Made by a program: the position numbers and the translations under genes. Source: Cetorhinus maximus (taxonomy: Eukaryota). From it: a stretch of 64,000 bases of DNA. The DNA lies in assembly GCF_964194155.1 (NCBI RefSeq), contig NC_135894.1, positions 2,356,001-2,420,000 on the forward strand. Direction: 5' to 3'. Shown piece after piece: positions 12,901 through 57,396 of this stretch (positions within the stretch are counted from its first letter, which is position 1; the number at the start of each line of letters is the position of its first letter). The notes under the pieces are model-generated. The model did not search any database. It had not been told where the DNA came from and saw nothing but the letters and a program-made list of their open reading frames with translations.

Positions 12901-13632
12901 CTGTTTACGAATATCAAATCCACACTGCAACTGTCCCTTTAAACCGTGCTCCTCAGTTTCTATAAGAACGTCATTAAAGGGCTCTTGATCACACTAGGTT
13001 CATACACATACCATCAAAGTTCACTTCTCCCGTCAAAGCTCTCGTTATTTGTACTAAGAACTCCATTAAGCCTTTCTATTACAATTTTCAGTTAAAATAT
13101 CTCTTATTCTTTTAATTAGTAAAGCCTCCTTTTCTCAGAATGAAGGAAGCATTGTATCCTTTACTCTGGCCTCAACTATTTATTTCACAGGTTATATAAT
13201 TCCGAAGTTTCACCAATATTTCAAATTAATTATTTGGACTGATCTGTGGTCGCACGATTTATCACTCTTTGCTTTTAACAGGCTGTAACATAAAAACAGA
13301 GTCTGCCGAAGTCACTCCCATATCCAAGGAGGATTGAAGGATTATAGTCAACGCCTCCACAACTTCCTCTGTTCATTGCCTCAGCGATATCACACATTCC
13401 ATTTAAGCCAGTTGAATGTTTATATTCACTGTGATATATAAAACTATTGGGATGGAATATGTGAAATGTACCTGATTGGTCAGGCACTGTAATTAATGTC
13501 ATTCTCAATGGATCATGACTCTCTCAATGGAGGGTTTCCCTCCTATTAATAAGGGACTTTTTTCAACGTGTTATCCATAGTGTCAGAGGGAAAATCAGCT
13601 CCAACACAAAACGGATCTCTGGTTCCAGATAG

Positions 13633-13823
13633 ATGGAGAGGAAAGGTCAGAAATTGAGAACAATTGATTGCAATGTTCCAACAATAGGACGGAAGTTATC
13701 ATCTTGGATTCACCCTCTTTCTCGAGTTGATTCGTGAATAATATTAGCAATTCGGATATGATATACACTTTACATTATTCAATTATTTTTACTATCCTAC
13801 TGTGGCTATTGTTGGTGTCCATG
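13633..13823 (+). pseudogene. GPR139-like GPCR pseudogene copy A, exon 1 (N-terminus and first half of TM1)
   Basis: ATG 13633 MERKGQKLRTIDCNVPT..., in-frame TGA stops and a +1 shift, then YYPTVAIVGVH-G|gtaag donor at 13824; upstream sequence aligns with 44830-44950. Confidence 0.75.
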
Positions 13824-21545: not shown

Positions 21546-23140
21546 CATCAGAGCAGAGCAAGTCACTCGAAAAGGAAATAATGAGATTGCAGAGACAACG
21601 TGTTCCCGCAAATGTGAATGGTTGAACCAAGACGTTCGACAAAACCTGGGTGTCGAGAAATGCAAGTTATTCGGTAAGAAATCAAAGAAACAGTAAAGCT
21701 TATGCTAGGTAACGAGGGCTCAGAACAGCGGACGCCCCATAAGAGTATTCAAAGTTCTGTGGGTTATTGAAAATGTAATTTGGAGAGCGAAGTGTAGGCA
21801 TGAGAATAATCACTGGCATCGAAAATAACATTAATTCCCAAATGGGATTTACAAGTATGTTAGTGGCAAGATGATACCCAGGGGACTAGTAGAGCACATT
21901 AGGTATCCAAGTGACAATATTAATGAGTAGAGGTAAGATAAAGGTACGTTTTTAAAAGAGTGCTTTGCATCGGTACCCACTATCGAGATGGATGATATAC
22001 GTATAGTAATAATATGTATGAAGAAGACAATTGCACATTGGATGCATGGCAATTTGATACGCTGGATACAAAATTAGCTCAGTTGTAGGAGGCAGAGTGT
22101 GATGACAGAAGAATGATTTATTGAGTGTACGCCAGTGTCCAGGGGAGGACCACAGGGATCTGTGCTCGGTCCTCTATTATTTGTCATTTATATAAACGAC
22201 GTTTTTGACAATGTGTGGGATGGTATTAGTACGTTTGTGGGTTGCACAAAGATGGACAAGGTGGTTAACTGTGAGTTTGATTGTCTTGAGCTACAGGAAG
22301 ATATAGACGGAATAGTCAAATAGGCAGATACGTGGCAAATCGAAGTTTTCCGTGAAAAGTGTTACATGATACACTTCGGAAGGAGTAAATTGACAAGGAA
22401 GTACTCAATGAACGGCATGACACTAGGAAGTTCTGAGGAACAAAGGGATCTTGGCGTGTGTGTCCATAGATATCTGAAGGCAGAGGGGCATCTGAGGGGG
22501 GTGGTCAAAAAGGCATATGGGAGACTTGCCCTTATCATTTGAGGCATATGTTACAAATGTAGAGAGTTCACATGAGAGTTTTATTGAAACTTTGTGAGGC
22601 CACAGCAGGCGTATTGATTTGTAGTTCTAGCTGGATCATTATACAAATGATGTGATTGATCTGGAGTGGGTGCAGAGGAAGTTCAACAGGGCGTTGACTG
22701 GGATGAAATATTTACTTTATGAAGGGATGTTTGATAGAGTTAGGTCGTTTTCGTTGGTTCAGAGAAGACTAAGGGGCGAAACTTCCGAGGTGCACAACAT
22801 AATGAGGGGCATAGGCAGGGTGGATAGGGTACAAATTCTTCCCCTTAGTTGAAGTGTCGGTCATAAGGGTGCATAAGTTCAGGGTGAGGGGCAGGAGGTT
22901 TAGGTTGGATGTGAGAAAATGTTTTTTTTATCCCGAGGGTGGTTACGGTCTGGAATGCACTGCCTGGGAGGGTGGTGGAGACTGATTGGCTCACATCATT
23001 TAAAATGTACCTGCATGAGCAAATAGCTGTGGGCCAAGTGCTGGTAAATGGGATTAGGTAGGTAGGTCAGGTGTTTCCCATGTGTCGTTTTAGTCTCGAT
23101 GGGCCGCAGGGGCTCTTCTGCACTGTGTGATTCTCTGATA
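21546..23140 (+). mobile_element. CR1 LINE, internally deleted, RT to 3' end
   Basis: GPQGSVLGPLLFVIYIND (22147-22200), LEWVQRKFNR, terminus gggctcttctgcactgtgtgattct. Confidence 0.85.
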
Positions 23141-23430
23141 TGTGTTTATCTTTGCATCTTTGTTTCGTATTGTGCATATATGTGTGTGAGTCTTTGAGTG
23201 TGTGTGTGTCTGTGTGTTTGATTTCTGTGCATATGCATTTCTGTGAGAACCCAGCAGCGTGCATGCATATTTTTTTTGTTCTTGCGTTTGAGCGTGTGTG
23301 TCCATGTGGGTGAGTATTTAATTTTTGGGGGGTTTTGTGTCAATCTTTTGACGTGTGTGCTTCTTTGAGCGCATGTGTTTGCTCATTAGTGTCTGTTTGA
23401 ATGTGTTTGTTTGCATTTGTACATGTGTGA

Positions 23431-23881
23431 NNNNNNNNNNNNNNNNNNNNNNNNNNNNNNNNNNNNNNNNNNNNNNNNNNNNNNNNNNNNNNNNNNNNNN
23501 NNNNNNNNNNNNNNNNNNNNNNNNNNNNNNNNNNNNNNNNNNNNNNNNNNNNNNNNNNNNNNNNNNNNNNNNNNNNNNNNNNNNNNNNNNNNNNNNNNNN
23601 NNNNNNNNNNNNNNNNNNNNNNNNNNNNNNNNNNNNNNNNNNNNNNNNNNNNNNNNNNNNNNNNNNNNNNNNNNNNNNNNNNNNNNNNNNNNNNNNNNNN
23701 NNNNNNNNNNNNNNNNNNNNNNNNNNNNNNNNNNNNNNNNNNNNNNNNNNNNNNNNNNNNNNNNNNNNNNNNNNNNNNNNNNNNNNNNNNNNNNNNNNNN
23801 NNNNNNNNNNNNNNNNNNNNNNNNNNNNNNNNNNNNNNNNNNNNNNNNNNNNNNNNNNNNNNNNNNNNNNNNNNNNNNNNN
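23431..23881. other. Assembly gap (451 N)
   Basis: Run of N. Confidence 1.
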
Positions 23882-24479
23882 GGGTGGAGGAGAGACAGAG
23901 AGTTGGAAAAGATTAACTTATTTTCTCCGGGATTATGCTTTCGTGGCAAGGCTTCCATTTTTTTTCCCATTCCAAATTTCCCTTGAGAAGTGTGTGAATA
24001 ATTAATTTATTCTGTGCGTGCACATGTGTGTGCGATTATATGTGTGGTTGTGTCTATTCTTTGCTTTTCAATGTGTGGGAGTTTCCGTGAATGTTTTTGT
24101 GCGTGTTTGTGTGTGTTCCTGTGTGTGTGTGTGTCAGAGATACAGAGAGAGAAGGAGCGGGAGAGGTACGTATTTCTGAAGGGACTGGTGCATTTTTGGC
24201 TAGGAAATCATTTATTTCCCGTTGCGGTTGAGAAATGTGTGTGCGTGTGTGTGTGAGCGTTTTCGTGAGAGTGTGTGAGTGAGGATGTATGAATTTCTGT
24301 ACGTCTGTTTTCGTATGTATTTGTCTGCGTTTATGTTTCTGTGTGTATGTGTGTCATTGCTTCTATGCATGTGATCCTGTGTGGGATTGTGAGTGAGCAT
24401 GCCGGTGCGTTTATGTATGTGTGTGTGCGTGTGTGTGTGTGTGTATGTATGCGTGTGTGTGTATGTATGTGTGTATGTA

Positions 24480-24917
24480 TGTGCATATGTGTTTGAATGT
24501 GTGTTTCTGTATTTGTGTCTGCGTATTTTTTTTAGGCGCTATTTTATGTCCGTGCCGGAGGGACGTGACAGCGTGCAACTGTATGTCAGCTCAGTCAATT
24601 TGTATGTGTCCTTCTGTATGTGCATATGTGTGTTCACGTGGATGCCTGTGGGTGCAATTAGGTTGTGTGTGTGTGTGAATGTGATTGTCTGTGTGTGTGT
24701 GGCTCGGTATGTGTGATCCTTTATCTGTACCAGTGCATTTACGTGTGTGTGTGTGTCTCTGTGTGTGTGTATGTATGTCTGTCTGTGTGTGTTTGGCATA
24801 TATATATAGAGAGTCTTGTCTGCATATCTATGTTTGTGATTTTATGTGTGAGTGCGTGTGGGCGTTTGTGTGAGCCTGTGCATGTGTTATTGCCTGTGTG
24901 CATGTGTGCCTGTGAGT

Positions 24918-24949
<32 letters not shown>

Positions 24950-26118
24950 GAGTGTCTTGGTGCCTGCATGTGGTCTTATTTAGGTTTTCTGGCGTGTGAA
25001 CTTGCTTGCGAGTGCGTGCGTGTGTGTCTGTGTGTTTGTGTTTGCAAGTTTGCATATGGACGTATGCGTGCTTCTGTTTTGACAAATGCTTCTGGGCGTG
25101 AATTTGTGCGCGTTTTGTGTTTTTGCTTATGCTGCTTTGAGAGAGGCAGCGTTTTGGTGGCAGTATATGTGTTTATGAGAGCTGGTTTGTGCATGTCTCC
25201 GCGTCCATGTGTGTCTACATGCGAGTGTGTGTGTGTGTGAGAGAAAAATAATACCTGTGATTCTGCTTCTCTTTGTGAATGTGTCTGTCTGTGCCTGTCT
25301 ACATGCGTGTGTAAATGCGTGTGATTGTGTGTATGTCTGTGTCTGTGTGTGTGAGTGTGTGTCTGTGTGAGCCTGTATTTGATTGATTAAGTTTGTGTTT
25401 ATCTATGTATGCGATTGCTTCCTGGCATGTGGGTGTGTGTGTTTCTGTATGTGTGTTTTCTGCTAGTGTTTGTTAGAGTGAGACAGCGTTTGGGTGGCAG
25501 TGTATGTGTTTGTCAGGTTTGTTCCGTGTGCATCTGTGAGACCATGAGTGTGCGTGTGGCTTTATGCATGTGATAGAGAAATGATGTGCTGGTGTTCGTT
25601 TCTCTTTGTAATTGTGTATTTGTCCGTCCGTTTGTGTATGTATGCATGTGTGTGCGTCAGTCTCAGTGCACTTCGTAAGTATATTTGAATGACTTTTTCT
25701 ACGTCTGTGCTTCTGTGCATGTCAATGCGATTGTGTGTATGTGAAAAGGTTTACAATGACTAAGTGAGTGTCCCCATGAATGTGTGTATACATCTGGGTT
25801 GGTTTTTGTGTGTGTGTGTGTGTGTGACTTTGTGCACGTGAGTGCATGTGTTGGGCGAATAAAAATACGTTTGGTAATATGTGTGCATTTGTGTGTCTGT
25901 ATTTCAACATGTTTGTCTGTGCATTAAAGATTGCGATTTTGTGTCTGCAACTGTATATGTGGTTGTGTGTGTGGCATGTTTGTGTGTGCGTGTGTGTGTG
26001 TGTGTGAGTCTGCACCTTTTCGTGACTGCGTTTTTCTGTTAGTGTTCATGCAAGAATTAGAATTTCTGATACCGTGAATGTATGTTCCAGCGTTGGTCTG
26101 TGAGTTTCAGGTTGTGCA

Positions 26119-26149
<31 letters not shown>

Positions 26150-26395
26150 AATTGTATATGTGTTTGAATGTGTGTTTCTGTATTCGTGTCTGCGCATCTT
26201 TTAGGTGCTAGTGTATGTCCGTGCGGGAGGGACAAAATGTCCATGACAGCATGCAACTGTATGTCAGCTGAGTCCATTTGTATGTGTCCTTCTGTATGTG
26301 CATATGTGTGTTCATGTGGGTGCCTGTGTGTGCAAATAGGTTGTGTGTGTGTGTCTGGCTCGGAATGTGTGATCCTTTATCTGTACCGGTGCAAT

Positions 26396-26433
<38 letters not shown>

Positions 26434-27660
26434 TGTGTGTGTGTGTGTGTGTGTGTCTGTGTGTGTGTGTGTTTGCCAGAGATATATAGAGAGTCTTGTC
26501 TGCATATCTATGTTTGTGATTTTATATTTGAGTGGGTGTGGGCGTTTGTCTGAGCCTGTGCATGTGTGATTGCCTGTGTGCATGTGTGCCTGTGAGTGTG
26601 TGTTTGTGTGTGTGTGTGTATGTGCGAGTGTCTTGGTGCTTGAGTGTGTACTTATATAGGTTTTGCGGCGTGTGAACTTGCTTGCGAGTGCGCGCGTGTG
26701 TTTCTATGTGTATGTGTTTGCAAGTTTGCATATGTACTTCTGTTTTGACAAATGTTTCTGGGCGTGAATTTGTGCACGTTTTGTGTTTCTGCATATGCTT
26801 GTTTGAGAGAGGCAGCGTTTGGGTGGCAGTATATGTGTTTGTCAGAGTTGGTTTGTGCATGCCTCTGCATCCATGTGTGTCTACATGTGTGTGTGTGTGT
26901 GCGTGTGTGAGAGAAAAATAATACCTGTGATTCTGCTTCTCTTTGTGAATTTGTCTTGGTGTGCCTGTCTATCTGCAAGTGTGAATGTGTGTGTTTGTGT
27001 GTATGTCTGTGTCTGTGTGTCTGAGTGTTTGTCTGTGTGAGCCTGTATTTGATTGATTAAGTTTTTGTTTTTCGATGTATGCGATTGCTTCTTGGCATGT
27101 GGGTGTCTGCGTTTCTGTATGTATGTTTTCAGCTAGTGTTTGTTAGAGTGAGACAGTGTTTGGGTGACATTGTATGGGTGTGTCAGGTTTGTTCCGTGTG
27201 TATCTGTGAGACGATGAGTATTCGTGTGGCTTTATGCATGTGAGAGAGAAATGATGTGCTGGTGTTCGTTTTTCTTTGTAATTGTGTATTTGTCCGTCCG
27301 TTTGTGCATGTATGCATGTGTGTGCGACAGTCAAAGTGAACTTCCTAAGTATATTTGAGTGTCTTTTTGTACGTCTGTGCTTCTGTGCGTGTCAATGCGA
27401 GTGTGTGTATGTGCATGCGTTTACAATGACTAAGTGAGTGTACCCATGAATGTGTGTGTACATCTGGGTTTGTTTGTGTGTGTGTGTGTGGGACTTTGTG
27501 TACGTGAGTGTATGTGTTGGGCGAATAAAAATACGTTTGTGAATATGCGTGCATTTGTGTGTCTGTATTTCAACATGTTTGTCTGTGCATTAAAGATTGT
27601 GCTTTTGTGTCTGCAACTGTGTATGTGATTGTGTGTGTGGCATGTTTGTGTGTGCGTGTA
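24480..27660 (+). repeat. Tandem duplication, period ~1.67 kb
   Basis: gcaactgtatgtcagct at 24575/26252; gagagaaaaataatacctgtgattctgcttctctttgtgaat at 25238/26908; taaagattg..ttttgtgtctgcaactg at ~25925/27591. Confidence 0.9.
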
Positions 27661-28535
27661 TATGCTTGTGTGTGTGTGTGTGTGTGTCTTTCTGTGTGTT
27701 TGTGTGACAGAGAGTGTTTATTGTAAGTTGCCGTGTGTACATGTGAGTTTGCCGTCATGTGTTTGGGTGTTTGTGCATTCCTGTACGTATGGTTGTGTAT
27801 GTCTGTTTTTGCATGTGTGTATGCGTGTTTCTGATTGTGCATGTGTGTGTGTGTGTTTGATTTTCTGTATGATTGTCTGTGTATTTCTGTTTTTGTGTGT
27901 GTGCTTGTTTGAATGTGATTGTGAGTGTTTCTGTGTGTATATTTTTAAGTGCATTTCTGTTTTGTGCATGTGTGTGCTTCTTTGTGTTTCTGAGAGTGTT
28001 TCTGAGAGCTGTTGTGTGTACATGCGAGTGTGCCCCTGCTTGTGTAAGTATGTCATTGAGTATATGTGCATTCTTGCACGTTGGGCTGCGTATTTGCATT
28101 TGTGCATTTGCATGTGATTGTGTGTGTATGAGTGTTTGTGTGTGAATGCGTGAGCATGTTGGTGTGCGTGTCATAATCTCTGTGTGCAACTGTGTTTGTG
28201 ATTGTTTTTGGCCATGTTGGTGTGCAGGATAATGTGTGAGTGTGTTTCTGCTGGCGATGTTTAGATTGAGACAGTTTTTCTGTGACATTGAAAGAGTGTG
28301 TATGTGCATAGATATGTGAGTGTTTATGTGTGTCTGTGTGTTTGAGGGAATCAATACATGCTTCTGTGCAAGTATGCTTGAGCGACAGTGTGTGCGTGTG
28401 TGTTCTTCTCAGGGGTCGATGTATATAAACATGCATTTAAGTGTGTTGTCAAGTGTTTGAGTCAGTGTGTCCATGTGTGTGTCTGCGTGTGTGTATGTGT
28501 ATGTGTGTGTGTGTTTGTTTGTCTGTGTGCGTTTA

Positions 28536-28838
28536 TACAGAATAATAAAACATTTAATAAAAGAGGATGGATGAACTATGTAACAAAACACAAACTCATG
28601 CCTCTTACAGATAAATACAACTTTGTAAGGATAACACAAGTTGTAAAAGCTTCTTTAGACTTTGTTTTCCACAGTAAGTACACAGTCCATCTGATCTAAA
28701 AGGCATCTTGTGGTCGGGCACATCACTTTCCGAAACCAAGTAACAGATGTCAGTCTTGCTGCATGCTATGGATCTCTCATCAACTCTCTCCAAATGCTCG
28801 CTAACCTGTCCTAGCTAAATCCGTCTATCAAACAAGGT
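28536..28838. repeat. AT-rich non-TG island, homologous to 31076-31390
   Basis: atgcc..ttacagata.atacaactt..aggataac.caagttg.aaaagctt and ctcatcaactctc.ccaaatg shared by both. Confidence 0.85.
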
Positions 28839-30443
28839 TTTTTTTCTTTGTGAGTGTGCCTTTGTACGTGTGCTTGTCTGTAAGTGTGATTTTCTGTGCA
28901 TCATTATGTATTTCATCATAACTACCCTTGAGGGACTATGTCTGTTTGTGGATACTTCTTTGTTTATCAATTTGCGTGTGTGTATTTGGTTATGTATACA
29001 ATAATTCAGTGAGAGTGCACATGCTTGTTTGTGTGTGTGCATGTGGGAGTGTTTGTCTGTATGTGTGGAATGTGTGTGGAGTTGTGTGTATATGTGTATA
29101 TGTTTGTGTGATGTCTTGTGTGTGTCTCAGAGAGTGATTTTGTGGAGATGAGTTTTTGTGTTGGAGAGGGGGTGAAAAAAATTGGGTGCTTATGCTTGCA
29201 ATTCTCAATATGTATTTCCATCTGCATGATTTTGCACTAATGTTTGCGTGTTTGCGTCTGTTAATGTGAATATTACTCTGTGTGGAGATCTGTGTGTGGG
29301 TATGTTTGTGTGAGCCAAAGTTTTTTTTTAAATATTTTGTTTTTTCTTTGTTTTTGATGGGAACTGGTTTTCAGAGGGTAGGCCAACATTTATTTCCCAT
29401 TACTATTATACCATCAGAAGTGTTTGTCAATTTGTATGTTTCTGTCTGTGCACATCTGTAAATGTGTGTGCATATCTGTGATTGAGTTTGCGCGTGTGCA
29501 TATATGTATCTGTGTGTGTGTGTGTGTGTGTGCATGTGTTCTGTTGGTGTCAACGCATGTGTTACTGCAAGGTAGTGTGTCCATGAATGTTCGAGTGAGT
29601 GAGCGTGTACGTGTGCGTGTGCATGGTGGGGTCGATGTGTCTTTGCATGCAGGAGAGTGTGCGAATGTGAGCTTGAGTGTGTGAGTATCTTAACATGTTA
29701 TTGCGTGTCTGAGTTGGTGTATTTGTCAGTGTTGTTTACTGTGTGTATGTCCCTGTATGTGCTTGTGTGCATTTTAATTTATGTATGTGTGTCCCTGTGT
29801 ATCTGGATGTTTTGGGCATGTGTATGTATATCTCGTGTTTGTCTTTGTGTTTGTATGCACATTTTGCTGAGTGTGTGTTTCTATTTGTGTTCATGGCAGA
29901 GACACTTTTTGTGTGATCGTGCATGTGTTTGTCAGTGTGTGTCTGTAAGTGCCTGTGCATTTCTGAGTAATGTTGTCTGTGTGTGAGCGTCTGTGTGTGT
30001 GTGTGCGTGGCGGGGTGGGGGGCTGTTTCTGTGTATAGACTTTCAATTTTATTTCTGCTTGTGTGCATGTGTGCGCTTTTTTTTCTGTGTTTATGCGGCA
30101 GAGAGTGTTTTGTGAGTTGGGGAGTGTACATGTGAGTGTGTCCGTGTGTTTGTATATATGTACTTGAGTATATCTGCATTTCAGCACCAATGTTTGCGTA
30201 TGTTTTTTTGTGCATTTGTGTGTGTGTATTTGTGATTGCGCGCGTGTGTGTGTGTATGCTTAAGTGTGCATGTGATTATGTGTGTTTCTGGTCTTCTGTT
30301 TGTTTGTGGCCATGTGTGTGCGGGTTTGTTATTGTGCGATTGTGTTTCCGCTGTTGATTGAAAGAGAGAGGCAGTGTTTGTGTGACAGCGGAAGTTTATG
30401 TCTGTGTCCATATGTGAGTGTCTGTGTGTGCCTGTGTGTGCGC

Positions 30444-30474
<31 letters not shown>

Positions 30475-31075
30475 CTTGTGAGTCAGTGCGTAATTCTGGT
30501 TAAGTATGTATGGATGTCTGTGTGCCTTTGCCTGTTCTTCTGTGGTGTCGATATGTAAAAACATGAATGTAAGTGTGTAAACAAATGTTTGAGGGAGTAT
30601 ATCCGTGTTTGTGTGTTTGTGCATTTGTGTGTGTTTTTGAGTTTGTTTGTATGTGTTTGTGCATGTGCGTTAGTTTGCATGTGATTATGTTTATGTGTTC
30701 CTGTGTTTGAGATTGTTTGTGGCCATGTGTGTATTTTTGTGTGCTATAGTGCACGTGGGTTTCTGTTGGCGTTTGTTAGAGAGAGGCAGTGTATGTCTGA
30801 CAGTGGATGTGCGTGTCACTCCGTCCATATGTGAGTGTGTGTGTGTGTGCATGTGAGTCAGTGGTTATTTCTGTGCAACTATATATGAGTGGCTGTGTGT
30901 GTACGTCCGTGGTTGTGTGGCATTGATGTGTATAAACATGCATGCAAATCTGTTCACAACTGTTTGATTGAGTCTCTCCGTGTGTGCGTGTGCGTGTGTG
31001 TGTGTATTTGTGTGTGTGTGAGAGAGTGCAAGCGTGTGTGTGTGTGTGTGTGTGTCTGAGTGCATGTGTGTGCAA

Positions 31076-32180
31076 ATAAAATGAAAAAAAAACACTTATT
31101 AAACAAGAAAAGATGACCTATATCAGATTACTCCTTCAAACAAGCTTATGCCTTTTACAGATACATACAACTTGGCTAGGATAACGCAAGTTGCAAAAGC
31201 TTACCTATACTCCGATTGCAACAGCAAGTACACGATGTAATCTAACAGGCAGCCTGCGTTCAGGCACATAACATCTGGAAACCAACTAACAGATTTTCCT
31301 ATTCTCAAATGCTTTGGATCACTCATCAACTCTCCCCAAATGTCTTAAATGCCGTAAGACAAGCCGGTTTGAGCAAAATCCGTACATCACACAAGTTTGT
31401 CCAAGATACAATCTCAATGACCTCTCGTTGGAATCCACTCCCAAAGAGATGCTTTCTGTCAGATGCCTTCCAAAGGTTTGACCACCAGGGTTTCGAAATC
31501 GCCTTCTGATTTTCCTCTCCCCATGTCAACACATGCATTGAACTTATCATCCATGCAATCTATTTCACCAACTCAGCCGTAAGCAGTAGATCATTAGCCC
31601 CAAGTAAATAGTAACACATTTTCACTAGCCCCTCTCGGCCTTCTGCCCTCTCAAGACTTTATCTAATTAAGTTTGAAGTTTAAAATTGAAGTTTGGTGCC
31701 TTTCTCTGCCCCTCACTTAACTTCTCCAAAGAGGGCATTTTTCCTGTTCCTGCCTTCCCGTTAACTTGAATGCGTTGTTGGGAGTTTCCCTGGTTCCAAT
31801 TCCCAGGACAACACCTTTTATCATGAAAGCTGCTGTTTGCCCCTTTTTTCCATTTTCTCTGGAGCCCTGTTGTGCCTGTGCGGTGGTGGGGCGGGAGTTG
31901 TCGTGGGGGATTCATGACGTGAGGGGCTGCCTCTCTGGATCCCTCTTCTAAGTCAAAAGTTCAAGTTTGCCTCCTCTTGTTTGCTTTGCTTCGTTGCAAG
32001 TCGTAAAACTTCTGCTCGAAATGCGGGAATCTTTCAAATGTGACATTAAAATTCAACTTAACGCCTTGCTAACACAGGAATGCAGAAACATCAATAAAAT
32101 GTAATATTTAAATATAAAACCCATTCCTAAGACTCACAAATATAAGTATACCTAACTTGATCTTTCCTATTTCCTTGCAC
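31076..32180 (-). mobile_element. Unclassified ~1.1 kb island, possibly a solo LTR
   Basis: Complex sequence within the TG tract; minus strand begins TGCAAGG; left 300 bp duplicated at 28536. Confidence 0.3.
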
Positions 32181-33937
32181 TTTTTGTGGTTGTGCGCGAG
32201 TGTGTGAGTGAGAGGTTTTTATGTTTTATTTTTAAATTAATTTTGATGAGATGTGGGCTTCGCTGGCTAGGCCAACATTAATTTATCATCACTATTAACC
32301 CTTCGGAAGATTTTGTATCACTTGCCTCTGTCTGTGTGTGCGTATGTGTGAGTGTGTGTGTGCATACCTGTATGTGAGTGTGTGTGTGTATGTGTATGTG
32401 TGTCTGCGTGTTCCTTGCGTGTCAACGCATCAGTATGTGCCAGATAGTATGTGCATGAATGCTCGAGTGTGTGTCTCTGTGTGTGCTCTCTGGCGTCGGT
32501 GTGTCTGCGTGCAGAAGAGTGTGGGCATGCCAGCTTGAGTGCGTGAGTGTTTGAATATGTTATTGTGTGTTTCTGTTTCAATGTGAGTGTATGTTCCTGT
32601 ATGTGATTGTGTGCATTTCTGTTTGTGTGTGTGTGTGTGTGTTTTTGTGTGTGTTATTATGTGTTTCTGTGTGTGTGTGTGTGTGTCGATATATTCCTTC
32701 GTGTGTGTGTGTATGCCACTCTGTATGTGTTTTGAGAGTGTTCTTGTGTGTGTGTGCTCATAGGTGTTTGCATGTGTACGCGTGTGTGTTCCTGTGAATA
32801 TGCCTGTTTGTGGGCATTTGTCTGTATGAATATTTCTGCTGGTGTTTGTAGGAGTGAGACAGTGTTTGAGTGAGAGTGACTGTGCGGGTCTTAGTGTGCC
32901 TGCGTGTTCCTTTGTGTGTTTGTGTGTGTATGTGTGTGTGTGTTTGTTTGTTTGTGTGTCTTTCTGTGCTTGTTTGTATGCATATGTCTGTGTGTACATG
33001 CGTGTGTTTGTATGAGTGAGAGAGAGAGAGATTGAGATATGGCGATTGAGATAATGTTTCTGCGATTGTTCTCATTATGAGTGTGTCCTTATATGCGTTT
33101 GTGTGTGTGTGTGTCTGTCTGTGTGTCTATTCGTCAGTGTGTATTTCTGTATAAGTAGGTGTGAGTCGCTCTAAGTCTAAGTGTGTGCTTCTCTGCGTGT
33201 CATTACTTTTTGCGTCCATGTGAGTTTGTTAACAAACTGCTTGAGTGAGTGTGAACTTTGCGTCTGCGTGTTTCACTCTGTGTATGTGTGTGTGTGTGTG
33301 CGTGTCTGTGTGTAACTCTCTGTGTCGATATGTGTCTTTGCAAGTGCATGTGTCTGTGTTAGTGCATGTCTGTTAGTTATTTCAAAAATATGTATTTTTT
33401 ACGGGCTGCAGGCATCGCTGTCCAGGCCAATATTCATTTGTGTTGCCTAATTTCACTTGTCAAATGTGTGTGTGTGTTTCTGTGCGTGTGTTTTAGAGAG
33501 ACAGTGTTTATGTGAGACTTTGTGTCATTAAAGGACCGCGAAAAAGGAGCATTTATCCTACTTATCTCCGCAGTCTGTAATGCACACCATCTGTTTATTC
33601 CCACTGACCCTCAGTTACCTGTCGCTCATTAATTCTCCCATCACCCTTGATTCCTCCCTTTGCCCCATCTCTCCGAATTCATCTTTGGGACCTCTATTAT
33701 GTCGCACTCACTCCTCGCTCCTCCCTGCCCTCCCCCCTTACCGCTTGTGATTGTACTTAATCTCTGTCTCATTCCAATGTATTACAGAACACCTTTGTAT
33801 TATTTCATGTCAATTTACGTCAGAACATCACAGGATGCTGTCACACTTTTGAAAATATCAATGACTACACAATCAAACAGATAACTTTTTCCCCAGATGT
33901 ATATACAAAACCATTCCTTTATCCATTTTCCTTACAG

Positions 33938-34854
33938 TGAACTTAATCACAATTGTGATCCTGAAGGGGAAAACTTCTGTTCTGAACCGATGTGTATCAT
34001 GTTACCTGTTGGCCATGGAAGTAGCCGATCTAATGGTCGTTATACTGGAGTGGATATTGAGACACATTCCAATTGTTTTTTAATGAACAATTTGTTTTAC
34101 TGTATTTCATTCTCCTGTGTAATATCCACGCCACGCTGCTTTATGCCGCCACCGACTCTTCTGCCTGGTTCACCGTCAGTTTCACCTTTGATCGATTTGT
34201 GACCATTTGTTGTCCAAATCTGAAAACTAAATATTGCAGCGAGAAAAAGGAAGCTTTGAATCTTGGAGCAGTGACTTTGCTGAACTGTTTAAAGAACATT
34301 TACTGCTGTTTTTTCTACACAGGGCAGTATTATCAACAGATCAACCCCTGGTTTTGTGGCGTCACACAGGGCGTTGAGCTTTCTCTGTTCTGGGTAATAA
34401 TCGAGTTCCTCCACCACATTCTAAACCATTGTGTCCCATTGTCCTGATTCTGATGCTCAATGTTCTCAGTGTTAGGCAGAGTTTAGCGAACAGCAGAGCC
34501 CGCAGGAGGCTCTGGGCTCAAAGCAGTGGGTGAGTCCCAGAGAACCAGAGATGGGCAGTCGAAGGAAATAAAGAAATACTCTTTTTGATATTGGCCAAAT
34601 TCATCCTGGTAAGGTCAATGATAGTGGTTTATTATATATGGACCCGGCTGTTGAATTTGGGGCTTCATTCTGTATATTTGGATTGGTTTGGTCAGGAATT
34701 GTGTTGCATGCTGCAGCTCCTGAGCTGCGGCAATAACACTGTGGTTTACGGTGTGACACAGACTCTGTTCAGACAGCAGTTGAAGAATGCGCTGAAATAT
34801 TCATTTACTCTCATTCTTCAATTCATTCAATGGTGTGAAGGACTCGATCACTGA
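33938..34854 (+). pseudogene. GPR139-like GPCR pseudogene copy A, exon 2 (TM1-TM7)
   Basis: ttacag| acceptor, (V)NLITIVILKGK..YLLAMEVADLMVVI, TAA at 34081 from an extra T, CNIHATLLYAATDSSAWFTVSFTFDRFVTICC, shifts ~34440 and ~34530, MLQLLSCGNNTVVYGVTQTLFRQQL. Confidence 0.9.
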
Positions 34855-44236: not shown

Positions 44237-44902
44237 CATTTAAAGCCGCTTGATCACCCTGTTTTCATGCACATAACATCAAGGTCACTTCCTCATCAAC
44301 CCTCGAGCTCCTAAGGCAAAAAGAACAACATTCAGTTAATCATATATGATTTTCCACGAAATTCTCTGTGATTCTGGTCATTTCGAAACATCCTTTTCTC
44401 ACAAAGAAAGTTTAGTGTCATCCTTGATTATTAATTTCTTTCTAGAATATACAATCAAAATTTTGAACAATGTTTCTCCAACATTACGCTAAATGCTCAG
44501 CAGTTTTAATGTTTATCCCTCTATCCCTTTATAAGCATCGTGGAATACTTATAAAACTCCATTCCTCTAACGCCACTTCAACATCCAAAGAGGATTGGAA
44601 TATTATGTGTTAAGTTCCTTCCCGATTTGCACCATTCCTTCTCTCAGGAACCCTGACATATCCAATAGAGTGCGGGTAAATGTCCTAATTTAGTTAGATG
44701 TAAAACGTGCTGGATTGAAACGGGTTAACAGAAACTGCTTTTTTTTTTCAGTGGCTGTGTTAATATCAGCCCTCACTAGTCATATTTTGTTATTACAGGG
44801 TTTCCCTCTACTATTTATAGGGGACTGTGTTCAATGTGTTATTTCATAGTGTCAGTGGGAGCATCTCCTCCGGCACTAAAAGTGAACAGTGGCTCCAGAG
44901 AG

Positions 44903-45246
44903 ACGGAGAGCGGAGTTCAGAATCTAAGTACAATAGATTGCAATTTTTCAACAATCGATCTCAGAGCAATAAATTGGAATGTTACAACAGTGCATCAGAT
45001 CCTGAGAACATGATTGGAAGGTTGCAACAGTGGATCAGAATCTGAGATCAGTAGATTGGAATGTTTCAACAATGGATCAGAATCTGAGAACAATAGAATG
45101 GAATGTTCCTGCAATGGGCAGGAGATATTCCGATAGACATTACATGCTTTCACTGGACAGGATACCTCTAAAATGGCAGATAGAATACGTATTTATTGTT
45201 ATTCCATCAGTTTACTATCCCATCCTGGTAATTATTGATATCCCTG
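44903..45246 (+). pseudogene. GPR139-like GPCR pseudogene copy B, exon 1
   Basis: ACG at 44903 aligns with copy A ATG; open from 45030 (ATG at 45072, 45114) to VYYPILVIIDIP-G|gttaga donor at 45247. Confidence 0.8.
44912..45113 (+). repeat. Coding minisatellite, 5 units of 42/36/40/42/42 bp (consensus ATGGATCAGAATCTGAGAACAATAGATTGGAATGTTTCAACA)
   Basis: Units start 44912, 44954, 44990, 45030, 45072. Confidence 0.9.
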
Positions 45247-45496
45247 GTTAGAGTCCCTATCTCGTTATTTATTAAATAAATCGTTTTTACCTCTTTTTCT
45301 GTTGATGTAATTTAACATCTGGAGAGGCAGCATCCATTCACGTCTGTTCCAGTCAGTATGTCAAGCCTTTATCCACCAGCTCCATTTCCATCCCTGATTG
45401 ATATCTGAGGCTGTTCTCAGACTCCATGCTCCATTTGACCATGAGCTCATTTATCGGACTATATTCTCTCCATCCCAAATTCTGTGGACGACCATG

Positions 45497-56554: not shown

Positions 56555-57396
56555 TGAACTTAATCACAATTGTGACACTGAAGGGCAAAAACTGTGTTCT
56601 GACGAAAAGTATCAGTTTTCACCTGGCGGTCATAGCAGTGACGGAAATAGTGGCCATTATCGTGGATCTGATATTGAGAAACATTATGATTGCTTTTCGG
56701 TAATAGTTTGTTTTCCTGCATCCCTTCCTAGTATGTTACGTCCAATCCGTACTGATTTATGCTGCCAGTGAGTGTTCTGTCTGCTTCACTGTCAATTTCT
56801 CCTTTGACCGATTTATGGGCATTTGATTTCCGAAACTAAAAATAAAATATTGCAGCGAGAAAACGGCGATTGTGACTCTGGGAACAGTGACTGTACTCAG
56901 CTGCTGAAAGAACATTTTCTGGCATTTTATGAACAGTGGTCGGTACATTGCCAGGTTTTGTGATATCAGACTCGGTGGTATGTTCTCTCCGTTCTGGGTA
57001 ACATTCGAGTTCCTTTGCAATATTCTAACCCCCTGTGTCCCATTTGCCCAGATTCTGCTGCTCAATGTTTTCACCGTCAGACACATTTCAATGAGCAGCA
57101 GAGCCCGCAGGAGACTCCGGGCTCATAGCAGTGGGGAGAGTCGCAGAGAGCCAAAGATGGAGAGTCGAAGGAAATCCAACATTATATTGTTTGCAATCTC
57201 GGCCAATTTCACACCGTTAAGGTCAACGTTAAAGCTTTATTCTATTTGGTGACTGATGCGGGATTTGGTTTATTGTTCAACATGGTTAGATCCGCCTGTT
57301 CTTGAATTGATTTAAGCCGTGACACAGACTCTGTTCAGACAGCAGTAGAAGAAGGTGCTAAAATATTGCTTTACTCAAATTCTTCATTTACTTTAA
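56555..57396 (+). pseudogene. GPR139-like GPCR pseudogene copy B, exon 2
   Basis: ttacag|(V)NLITIVTLKGKNC..FSFDRFMGI..TPCVPFAQILLLNVFTVRHI..SRARRRLR..MESRRKS; in-frame stops at 56701, 56704, 56824, 56905, 57250, 57313, 57346; 42-bp TM7 deletion relative to copy A. Confidence 0.9.

Follow-up and report, generated by a model that had tools for sequence, protein, structure and literature searches.

The locus examined here raises the question of whether a short tandem repeat that encodes glycosylation sites at the N-terminus of a receptor serves to tune ectodomain length, glycan number and start-site use among paralogs, as a sequence-only reading of it had proposed, or is an array that the genes merely tolerate. 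The window analysed is a 64,000-nucleotide stretch of the Cetorhinus maximus genome (contig NC_135894.1, positions 2,356,001 to 2,420,000, forward strand), and the repeat occurs in two genes within it, referred to as copy A and copy B. Both are two-exon class A G protein-coupled receptor (GPCR) genes, with a short exon 1 ending inside the first transmembrane helix (TM1), a phase 1 intron of 20 kb in copy A and 11 kb in copy B, and the seven-transmembrane (7TM) core in exon 2. Exon 1 of copy A (13633..13823) has a private ATG at 13633, a single repeat unit at 13642-13683, a stop at 13735 and a net frameshift before the donor, and its exon 2 (33938..34830) carries four frameshifting indels and a stop. 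In copy B, the part of exon 1 that follows the repeat (45114..45246) comprises a post-repeat ATG, a short ectodomain and the start of TM1, with a GT donor at 45247-45248; exon 2 (56555..57381) contains at least five in-frame stops, at 56701, 56704, 56824, 56905 and 57250. Both window genes are pseudogenes of a GPR139-like shark GPCR family and, as both are broken, neither start use nor glycans can be functional within the window. The copy A intron also holds a degenerate, TG-rich satellite spanning about 10 kb (23100-33300), with an internal 1.67-kb tandem duplication.

The description of the array in copy B as five tandem units of roughly 42 bp is correct. TRF places an array of 42-nt period at 44917-45107 (4.7 copies, score 200, 21-bp sub-period), and a wrap-around alignment of 44912-45113 gives five units of 42, 36, 40, 42 and 42 bp; the single unit noted at the homologous place in copy A is likewise present at 13642-13683. 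Unit 1 (44912..44953) begins with GGA, lacks an ATG and encodes the sequons NLS and NFS; family-wide, unit 1 normally sits 5' of the start. Unit 2 (44954..44989) begins with ATC and has lost 6 bp, a loss absent from the earlier description, and its NVT lies in a frame severed from the receptor. Unit 3 (44990..45029) begins with GTG, and its 2-bp loss, which had been spotted from the sequence, shifts the frame. Unit 4 (45030..45071) also begins with GTG and encodes NVS; it is in frame, with the first in-frame ATG lying downstream of it. Unit 5 (45072..45113) has an ATG in the context ACAATGG and encodes NVP, as does the last unit of copy A. The four sequons and the terminal NVP were thus read correctly; units were also said to begin with ATG- or GTG-like codons, but only unit 5 begins with an ATG. 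As units 1 and 2, which hold three of the four sequons, are out of frame and upstream of this sole in-frame unit ATG, the exon-1 frame that opens at unit 5 contains no sequon.

The window interval 28192-58201 matches loci L067-L069, and the region is repeated in inverted orientation on contig C20 at 96-97% identity. Both the 6-bp and the 2-bp loss recur in this inverted twin, so they are not one-off assembly errors, and assembly error can be ruled out as their source. The twin has four units, exactly one fewer than copy B, and its last unit is a hybrid of units 4 and 5 of copy B. One DNA contig matches 44740-45078 without differences, but it possibly derives from the window's own sample and was not counted as independent. 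Summed DNA-contig depth over the copy B units is very high, although depth is not a copy number.

A first look at the genome gave 797 candidates with copy B exon 1, 1,412 with a paralog exon-1 peptide and 3,580 with exon 2; the genome was searched with single proteins as queries, and these figures are candidates, not gene counts. Open frames of around 300 aa are found in most of the 150 exon-2 candidates scored. The database searches gave 98 proteins, every one from a shark and together spanning seven genera; automatic naming has labelled most of them 'probable GPCR 139'. At least one unit is found in 82 of the 91 parsed, two or more in 51 and none in nine, and the 14-residue consensus recurs across the seven genera. 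The intact relatives P0038 and P0010 match Pfam 7tm_1 (61 and 65 bits; cut-off 30.5), and the 7TM model agrees, so that intact relatives combine a 7tm_1 match above the gathering cut-off with the seven TM helices of a class A (rhodopsin-like) GPCR; the broken window fragments match 7tm_1 below that cut-off. The sole PDB match is GPR139 (E 2.8e-14), the closest solved relative and a distant one. GPR139 is activated by L-Trp and L-Phe. Copy number and distance argue for an expanded clade separate from the GPR139 orthologs. On the large contigs C11, C16, C20, C21 and C23, receptor clusters sit no more than a few Mb from one end, suggesting subtelomeric positions. Several further gene pairs are collinear between C16 (about 1.2-4.5 Mb) and C20 (about 0.8-4.4 Mb), representing either a haplotype or a segmental duplication.

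From 1.3 Mb of fetched DNA we obtained 121 arrays in 41 subfamilies, of which 36 belong to intact genes, 62 to dead genes and 23 are unresolved. They were detected through resemblance to exons that bear units, and near-duplicates are among them; one array, truncated by a fetch border, was set aside, leaving 120 for analysis. Genes were scored as intact if they had a GT donor, an open post-repeat exon 1 and an open frame of 290 aa or more in exon 2, as checked in sequence for 32 and by frame length for four. Comparisons of intact and dead genes leave out the 23 of 121 arrays that were unpaired, including five genes with a possible second exon 1.

Confinement of the repeat to pseudogenes, an outcome on which the proposal could have foundered, is ruled out by the 36 intact paralogs, which carry 1-20 coding units and 0-12 sequons each. 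At least one in-frame unit follows the first ATG in 36/36 intact models, and two or more do so in 25/36; at least one N-terminal sequon is present in 32/36. In a sample of 13 genes anchored on exon 2, the fetched stretch contained an exon 1 in 11 cases, each with two or more units; this sample consists of near relatives of the window's exon 2, and distant clades lacking units may exist. The idea of a minisatellite at the receptor N-terminus that varies in copy number and is for the most part coding is therefore supported: head-to-tail 42-bp units, within the 10-100 bp range of minisatellites, lie in variable number inside the ORF of intact models. Copy B itself, being a pseudogene, does not qualify as a coding VNTR, in which the repeat lies inside the ORF of an intact gene.

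Unit number varies between close paralogs. It differs in 68 of 130 paralog pairs that are at least 97% identical (which may include alleles), near-identical paralogs differ by whole units, and four intact genes at 99.4% identity have 5, 7, 8 and 9 units. Median unit numbers are 4 in intact and 5 in dead genes (p=0.19). At the upper end, the intact-looking L130 (C48:854021, minus strand) has an exon 1 of 326 aa that holds 20 coding units and 12 sequons, and its exon 2 is open; its relative on C41, with 15 units, is broken. The longest array found, with 28 units, lies in a dead exon at L129 (C34:1039600-1040800), where the same TGA stop is seen in six units, a mutation spread by unit duplication. 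Two exon-1 copies stand upstream of one complete exon 2 at L065 (C24:29608684, 29612503), L129 (C34:1040796, 1034570), L130 and L132; exon-2 fragments lie in between at some of these loci and not at others, and the duplicates are possibly alternative first exons or decayed tandem copies.

The relation of the array to the start codon differs from that first described. The ACG at 44903..44905 had been taken for a former ATG, but among 120 paralogs the homologous codon is AGG in 76, ACG in two (copy B and its twin) and ATG in copy A only. AGG is the family state, hence the ACG is not a lost ATG, and the comparison had set two derived states side by side. Unit 1 begins with ATG in only 8/120 arrays. 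Had the repeat proved to be 5' UTR, it could have no part in the ectodomain; we see that this is half true, in that one or more 5' units precede the first usable ATG in 32/36 intact genes while at least one unit is coding in all 36. The post-repeat codon is ATG in 28/36. A stop occurs in an upstream unit in 3/35 intact genes, and in this respect the notion of a downstream unit ATG as a spare start is supported for the family. It is not supported for unit 5 as the functional replacement start of copy B, since exon 2 of this copy is dead and the fallback would in any case be the family ATG at 45114.

The consensus unit contains two ATGs, one in frame in a strong context (ACAATGG) and one out of frame (GGAATGT) that opens an 8-codon frame overlapping the ATG of the next unit. 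An out-of-frame uORF overlapping the main start is present in 21/36 intact genes. Further upstream, a TATA-like element at 44812..44819, about 100 bp before unit 1, is the putative promoter of copy B. We see a conserved TATA-like element between TTCCC and GGGA-like arms at both 44801-44827 and 13536-13560, in each case about 100 bp before unit 1. A strict TATA-like motif occurs 85-102 bp before unit 1 in 30/120 paralogs, compared to 1/120 control intron windows. The element is likely the core promoter of the family, and its position suggests that unit 1 is transcribed. A look-up for an intact paralog listed no RNA record, which speaks neither for nor against expression.

The proposal also implied that sequons should be conserved above neutral expectation, as in a selected glycosylation repeat, and this was not seen. 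Counting distinct substitution events in coding units, omega is 1.04, and 23 of 144 nonsynonymous events destroy a sequon against 13.7% expected (p=0.47). A sequon is kept in 43/73 unique coding units compared to 15/38 non-coding units (p=0.07). Pairwise omega for coding units of 14 intact representatives, with no transition correction, is 0.53 (0.35-0.80), with TM1 at 0.24, exon 2 at 0.39 and the adjacent ectodomain at 0.86. The corresponding dN values are 0.16 for units, 0.18 for exon 2 and 0.59 for the adjacent ectodomain; dS is 0.31 for units and 0.48 for exon 2. With transition correction, unique units give 0.80 (0.56-1.11) if coding, 1.25 if non-coding and 1.23 in pseudogenes, and the coding/non-coding ratio is 0.77 (0.43-1.20). 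The four estimates of coding-unit omega read 0.53, 0.80, 0.85 and 1.04, at low power, with about nine synonymous sites per 42-bp unit. These values suggest that constraint on unit residues is weak at most. The uniformity of the units looks to be partly a matter of homogenisation, or of ascertainment, as units were picked by likeness to the consensus.

The reading frame gives a somewhat different picture. After the first unit ATG, a stop or frameshift is present in 3/35 intact compared to 21/57 dead genes (p=0.003), a count from which four intact genes with a 10-bp insertion at the 5' alignment edge were excluded as artefacts; including them gives 7/35 (p=0.11). Scored as distinct events, the same lesions number two in intact and 12 in dead genes (p=0.10). 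Frame continuity in intact genes therefore looks modestly protected. The ectodomain after the array (45114-45200 in the window, and its paralogs) diverges faster than either the array or the 7TM core, with dN 0.59 and omega 0.86, and is a candidate for diversifying evolution on the ligand side.

For the encoded tail, an AlphaFold2 model of a 5-unit database protein gives pLDDT below 50 for residues 1-61 (around 30 for the units), with no secondary structure ahead of the 7TM core. The tail of intact receptors is likely disordered and glycosylatable, and its exact length is likely of little importance. Judging from the 4/36 intact genes that have no N-terminal sequon, one N-terminal glycan is not obligatory. 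In other GPCRs, N-terminal glycans promote surface delivery (PMC9587021, PMC5134269), and export tags with more glycan sites can raise the surface level, which the authors themselves call speculative (PMC9587021).

Overall, we think it probable, with real room for doubt, that copy B has, in a dead gene, the 42-bp minisatellite shared by the whole family, which contains the start codon, changes by slippage or unequal crossover, encodes in intact genes a disordered, sequon-bearing tail and is near-neutral in unit number. The start codon and the next 13 codons would have been tandemly duplicated early in the shark receptor clade, and unit number would have changed since by slippage or unequal crossover. 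Each gain would keep the frame and add 14 disordered residues, usually a sequon, and a spare ATG. Translation would start at the first good unit ATG of a transcript begun from the TATA-like site, and at least one N-terminal glycan would probably help surface delivery, by analogy with other class A GPCRs; we infer slippage, transcription, translation and glycosylation alike. A unit whose length is a multiple of three and which carries an ATG can be gained or lost without a frameshift, and lesions upstream of it can be bypassed. Such an array is cheap to carry, and so can drift. Near-neutrality is favoured by omega of 1.04 and 0.80 in two estimates, by sequon losses that are not depleted and by the same unit number in intact and dead genes. 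Counted against it are the omega estimate of 0.53, the low dN of units, the consensus shared by seven genera and the sequon trend (p=0.07). Low dN and a cross-genus consensus fit real constraint, but homogenisation or consensus-based picking of units can also yield both.

The same observations bear on the view that unit number is selected in each paralog, so that ectodomain length or glycan load sets surface level or ligand access. Intact genes do span 0-12 sequons and 1-20 coding units, the unit is conserved in seven shark genera, one omega estimate is 0.53, coding units tend to hold more sequons (p=0.07), and multi-glycan export tags can raise GPCR surface level, a point that the authors call speculative (PMC9587021). 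Against this, sequon-destroying changes are not depleted, omega is near 1 in two other estimates, intact and dead genes have the same unit number, and the longest array, of 28 units, sits in a dead exon. The sequence evidence leans against strong selection on unit number, and we regard such tuning as unlikely. A broader idea treats the 42-bp unit as a 'start cassette' comprising a strong ATG, an N-glycan site and an overlapping uORF, whose copy number would be a heritable dial for output, glycans and tail length. We hold this to be rather improbable; if true, the dial would span a repertoire of unstudied shark receptors, which may number a thousand or more and are possibly chemosensory or immune.

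Alternatively the array might act as RNA, with an out-of-frame ATG in each non-coding 5' unit, so that unit number and mutations at unit starts would set output and N-terminal isoforms through leaky scanning. A uORF overlaps the main start in 21/36 intact genes, at least one 5' unit is non-coding in 32/36, unit DNA is more uniform at synonymous sites than its flanks (dS 0.31 vs 0.48 and 0.69), and the TATA-like site about 100 bp upstream would place the 5' units in the transcript. Yet the AAT-GTT (Asn-Val) codons create the out-of-frame ATG as a by-product, in the weaker context GGAATGT, this ATG is absent upstream of the start in many intact genes, and in a position profile its bases vary freely; we judge such attenuation distinctly doubtful. 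Least credible of all, and very improbable in our estimate, is a structural module built from the two heptads of the unit, either a coiled coil or a tethered ligand, with a role in oligomerising or gating the receptor. The heptad spacing (L/V and I/M residues 3-4 apart), the 21-nt sub-period and three sub-threshold coiled-coil-type Pfam matches in a 9-unit protein point in this direction, but AlphaFold2 leaves the units unstructured at pLDDT around 30, proline is common at unit position 13 (11/73 unique coding units) and omega is near 1. A homotrimer prediction for a 140-residue repeat tail scored 0.00 and was used neither for nor against binding. In short, the window copy is dead, and the evidence favours a start-codon minisatellite in tolerated drift.

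A coding VNTR whose unit carries its own start codon and sequon would be unusual and self-repairing in design, and near-identical receptors with 1-20 units offer a natural series for studying the effect of glycan number and tail length on GPCR delivery. The closest likenesses are shark RefSeq/UniRef models named 'probable G-protein coupled receptor 139' (P0003, P0010 and P0038 among others), machine annotations that share the exon-1 peptide and the unit, and of which 82 of 91 parsed have 1-9 N-terminal units. GPR139 is a single-copy gene, in which we know of no N-terminal tandem repeat; the human protein is a distant match, whereas the shark genes number hundreds to thousands. Coding VNTRs of mucins, CEL and DRD4 (in the last a 48-bp repeat in exon 3) are comparable in that an in-frame minisatellite alters protein length and, for mucins and CEL, the repeats are glycosylated. 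These lie at one locus each, whereas the shark unit holds a start codon and an N-sequon, is placed at an extracellular N-terminus and recurs through a multigene family.

Human GPR139 (PDB 7VUG/9M42), GPR142 and the orphan GPR210A/B clades (PMC6504862) resemble the shark receptors as class A members with a 7tm_1 domain. A whale shark paper describes cartilaginous fishes as relatively GPCR-poor (PMC8455134), and the repeat marks a very large receptor family in these animals. We found no description of the family expansion or the repeat in the literature searched, where supplements or subscription journals could hold one; term look-ups in the searchable text of PMC11979771, PMC8455134, PMC6504862 and PMC12294341 gave no description of the repeat. 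Glycosylated GPCR export tags (the SST3 and M3 tags and the D2R N-terminus) are similarly short N-terminal segments with N-x-S/T sites (PMC9587021, PMC5134269). They are non-repetitive and their role in surface delivery is demonstrated, whereas for the shark array it is inferred (PMC9587021, PMC5134269). Coding VNTRs and glycosylated GPCR N-termini are both already known, and a repeat unit built on the start codon, spread across a receptor repertoire, is a variant of them.
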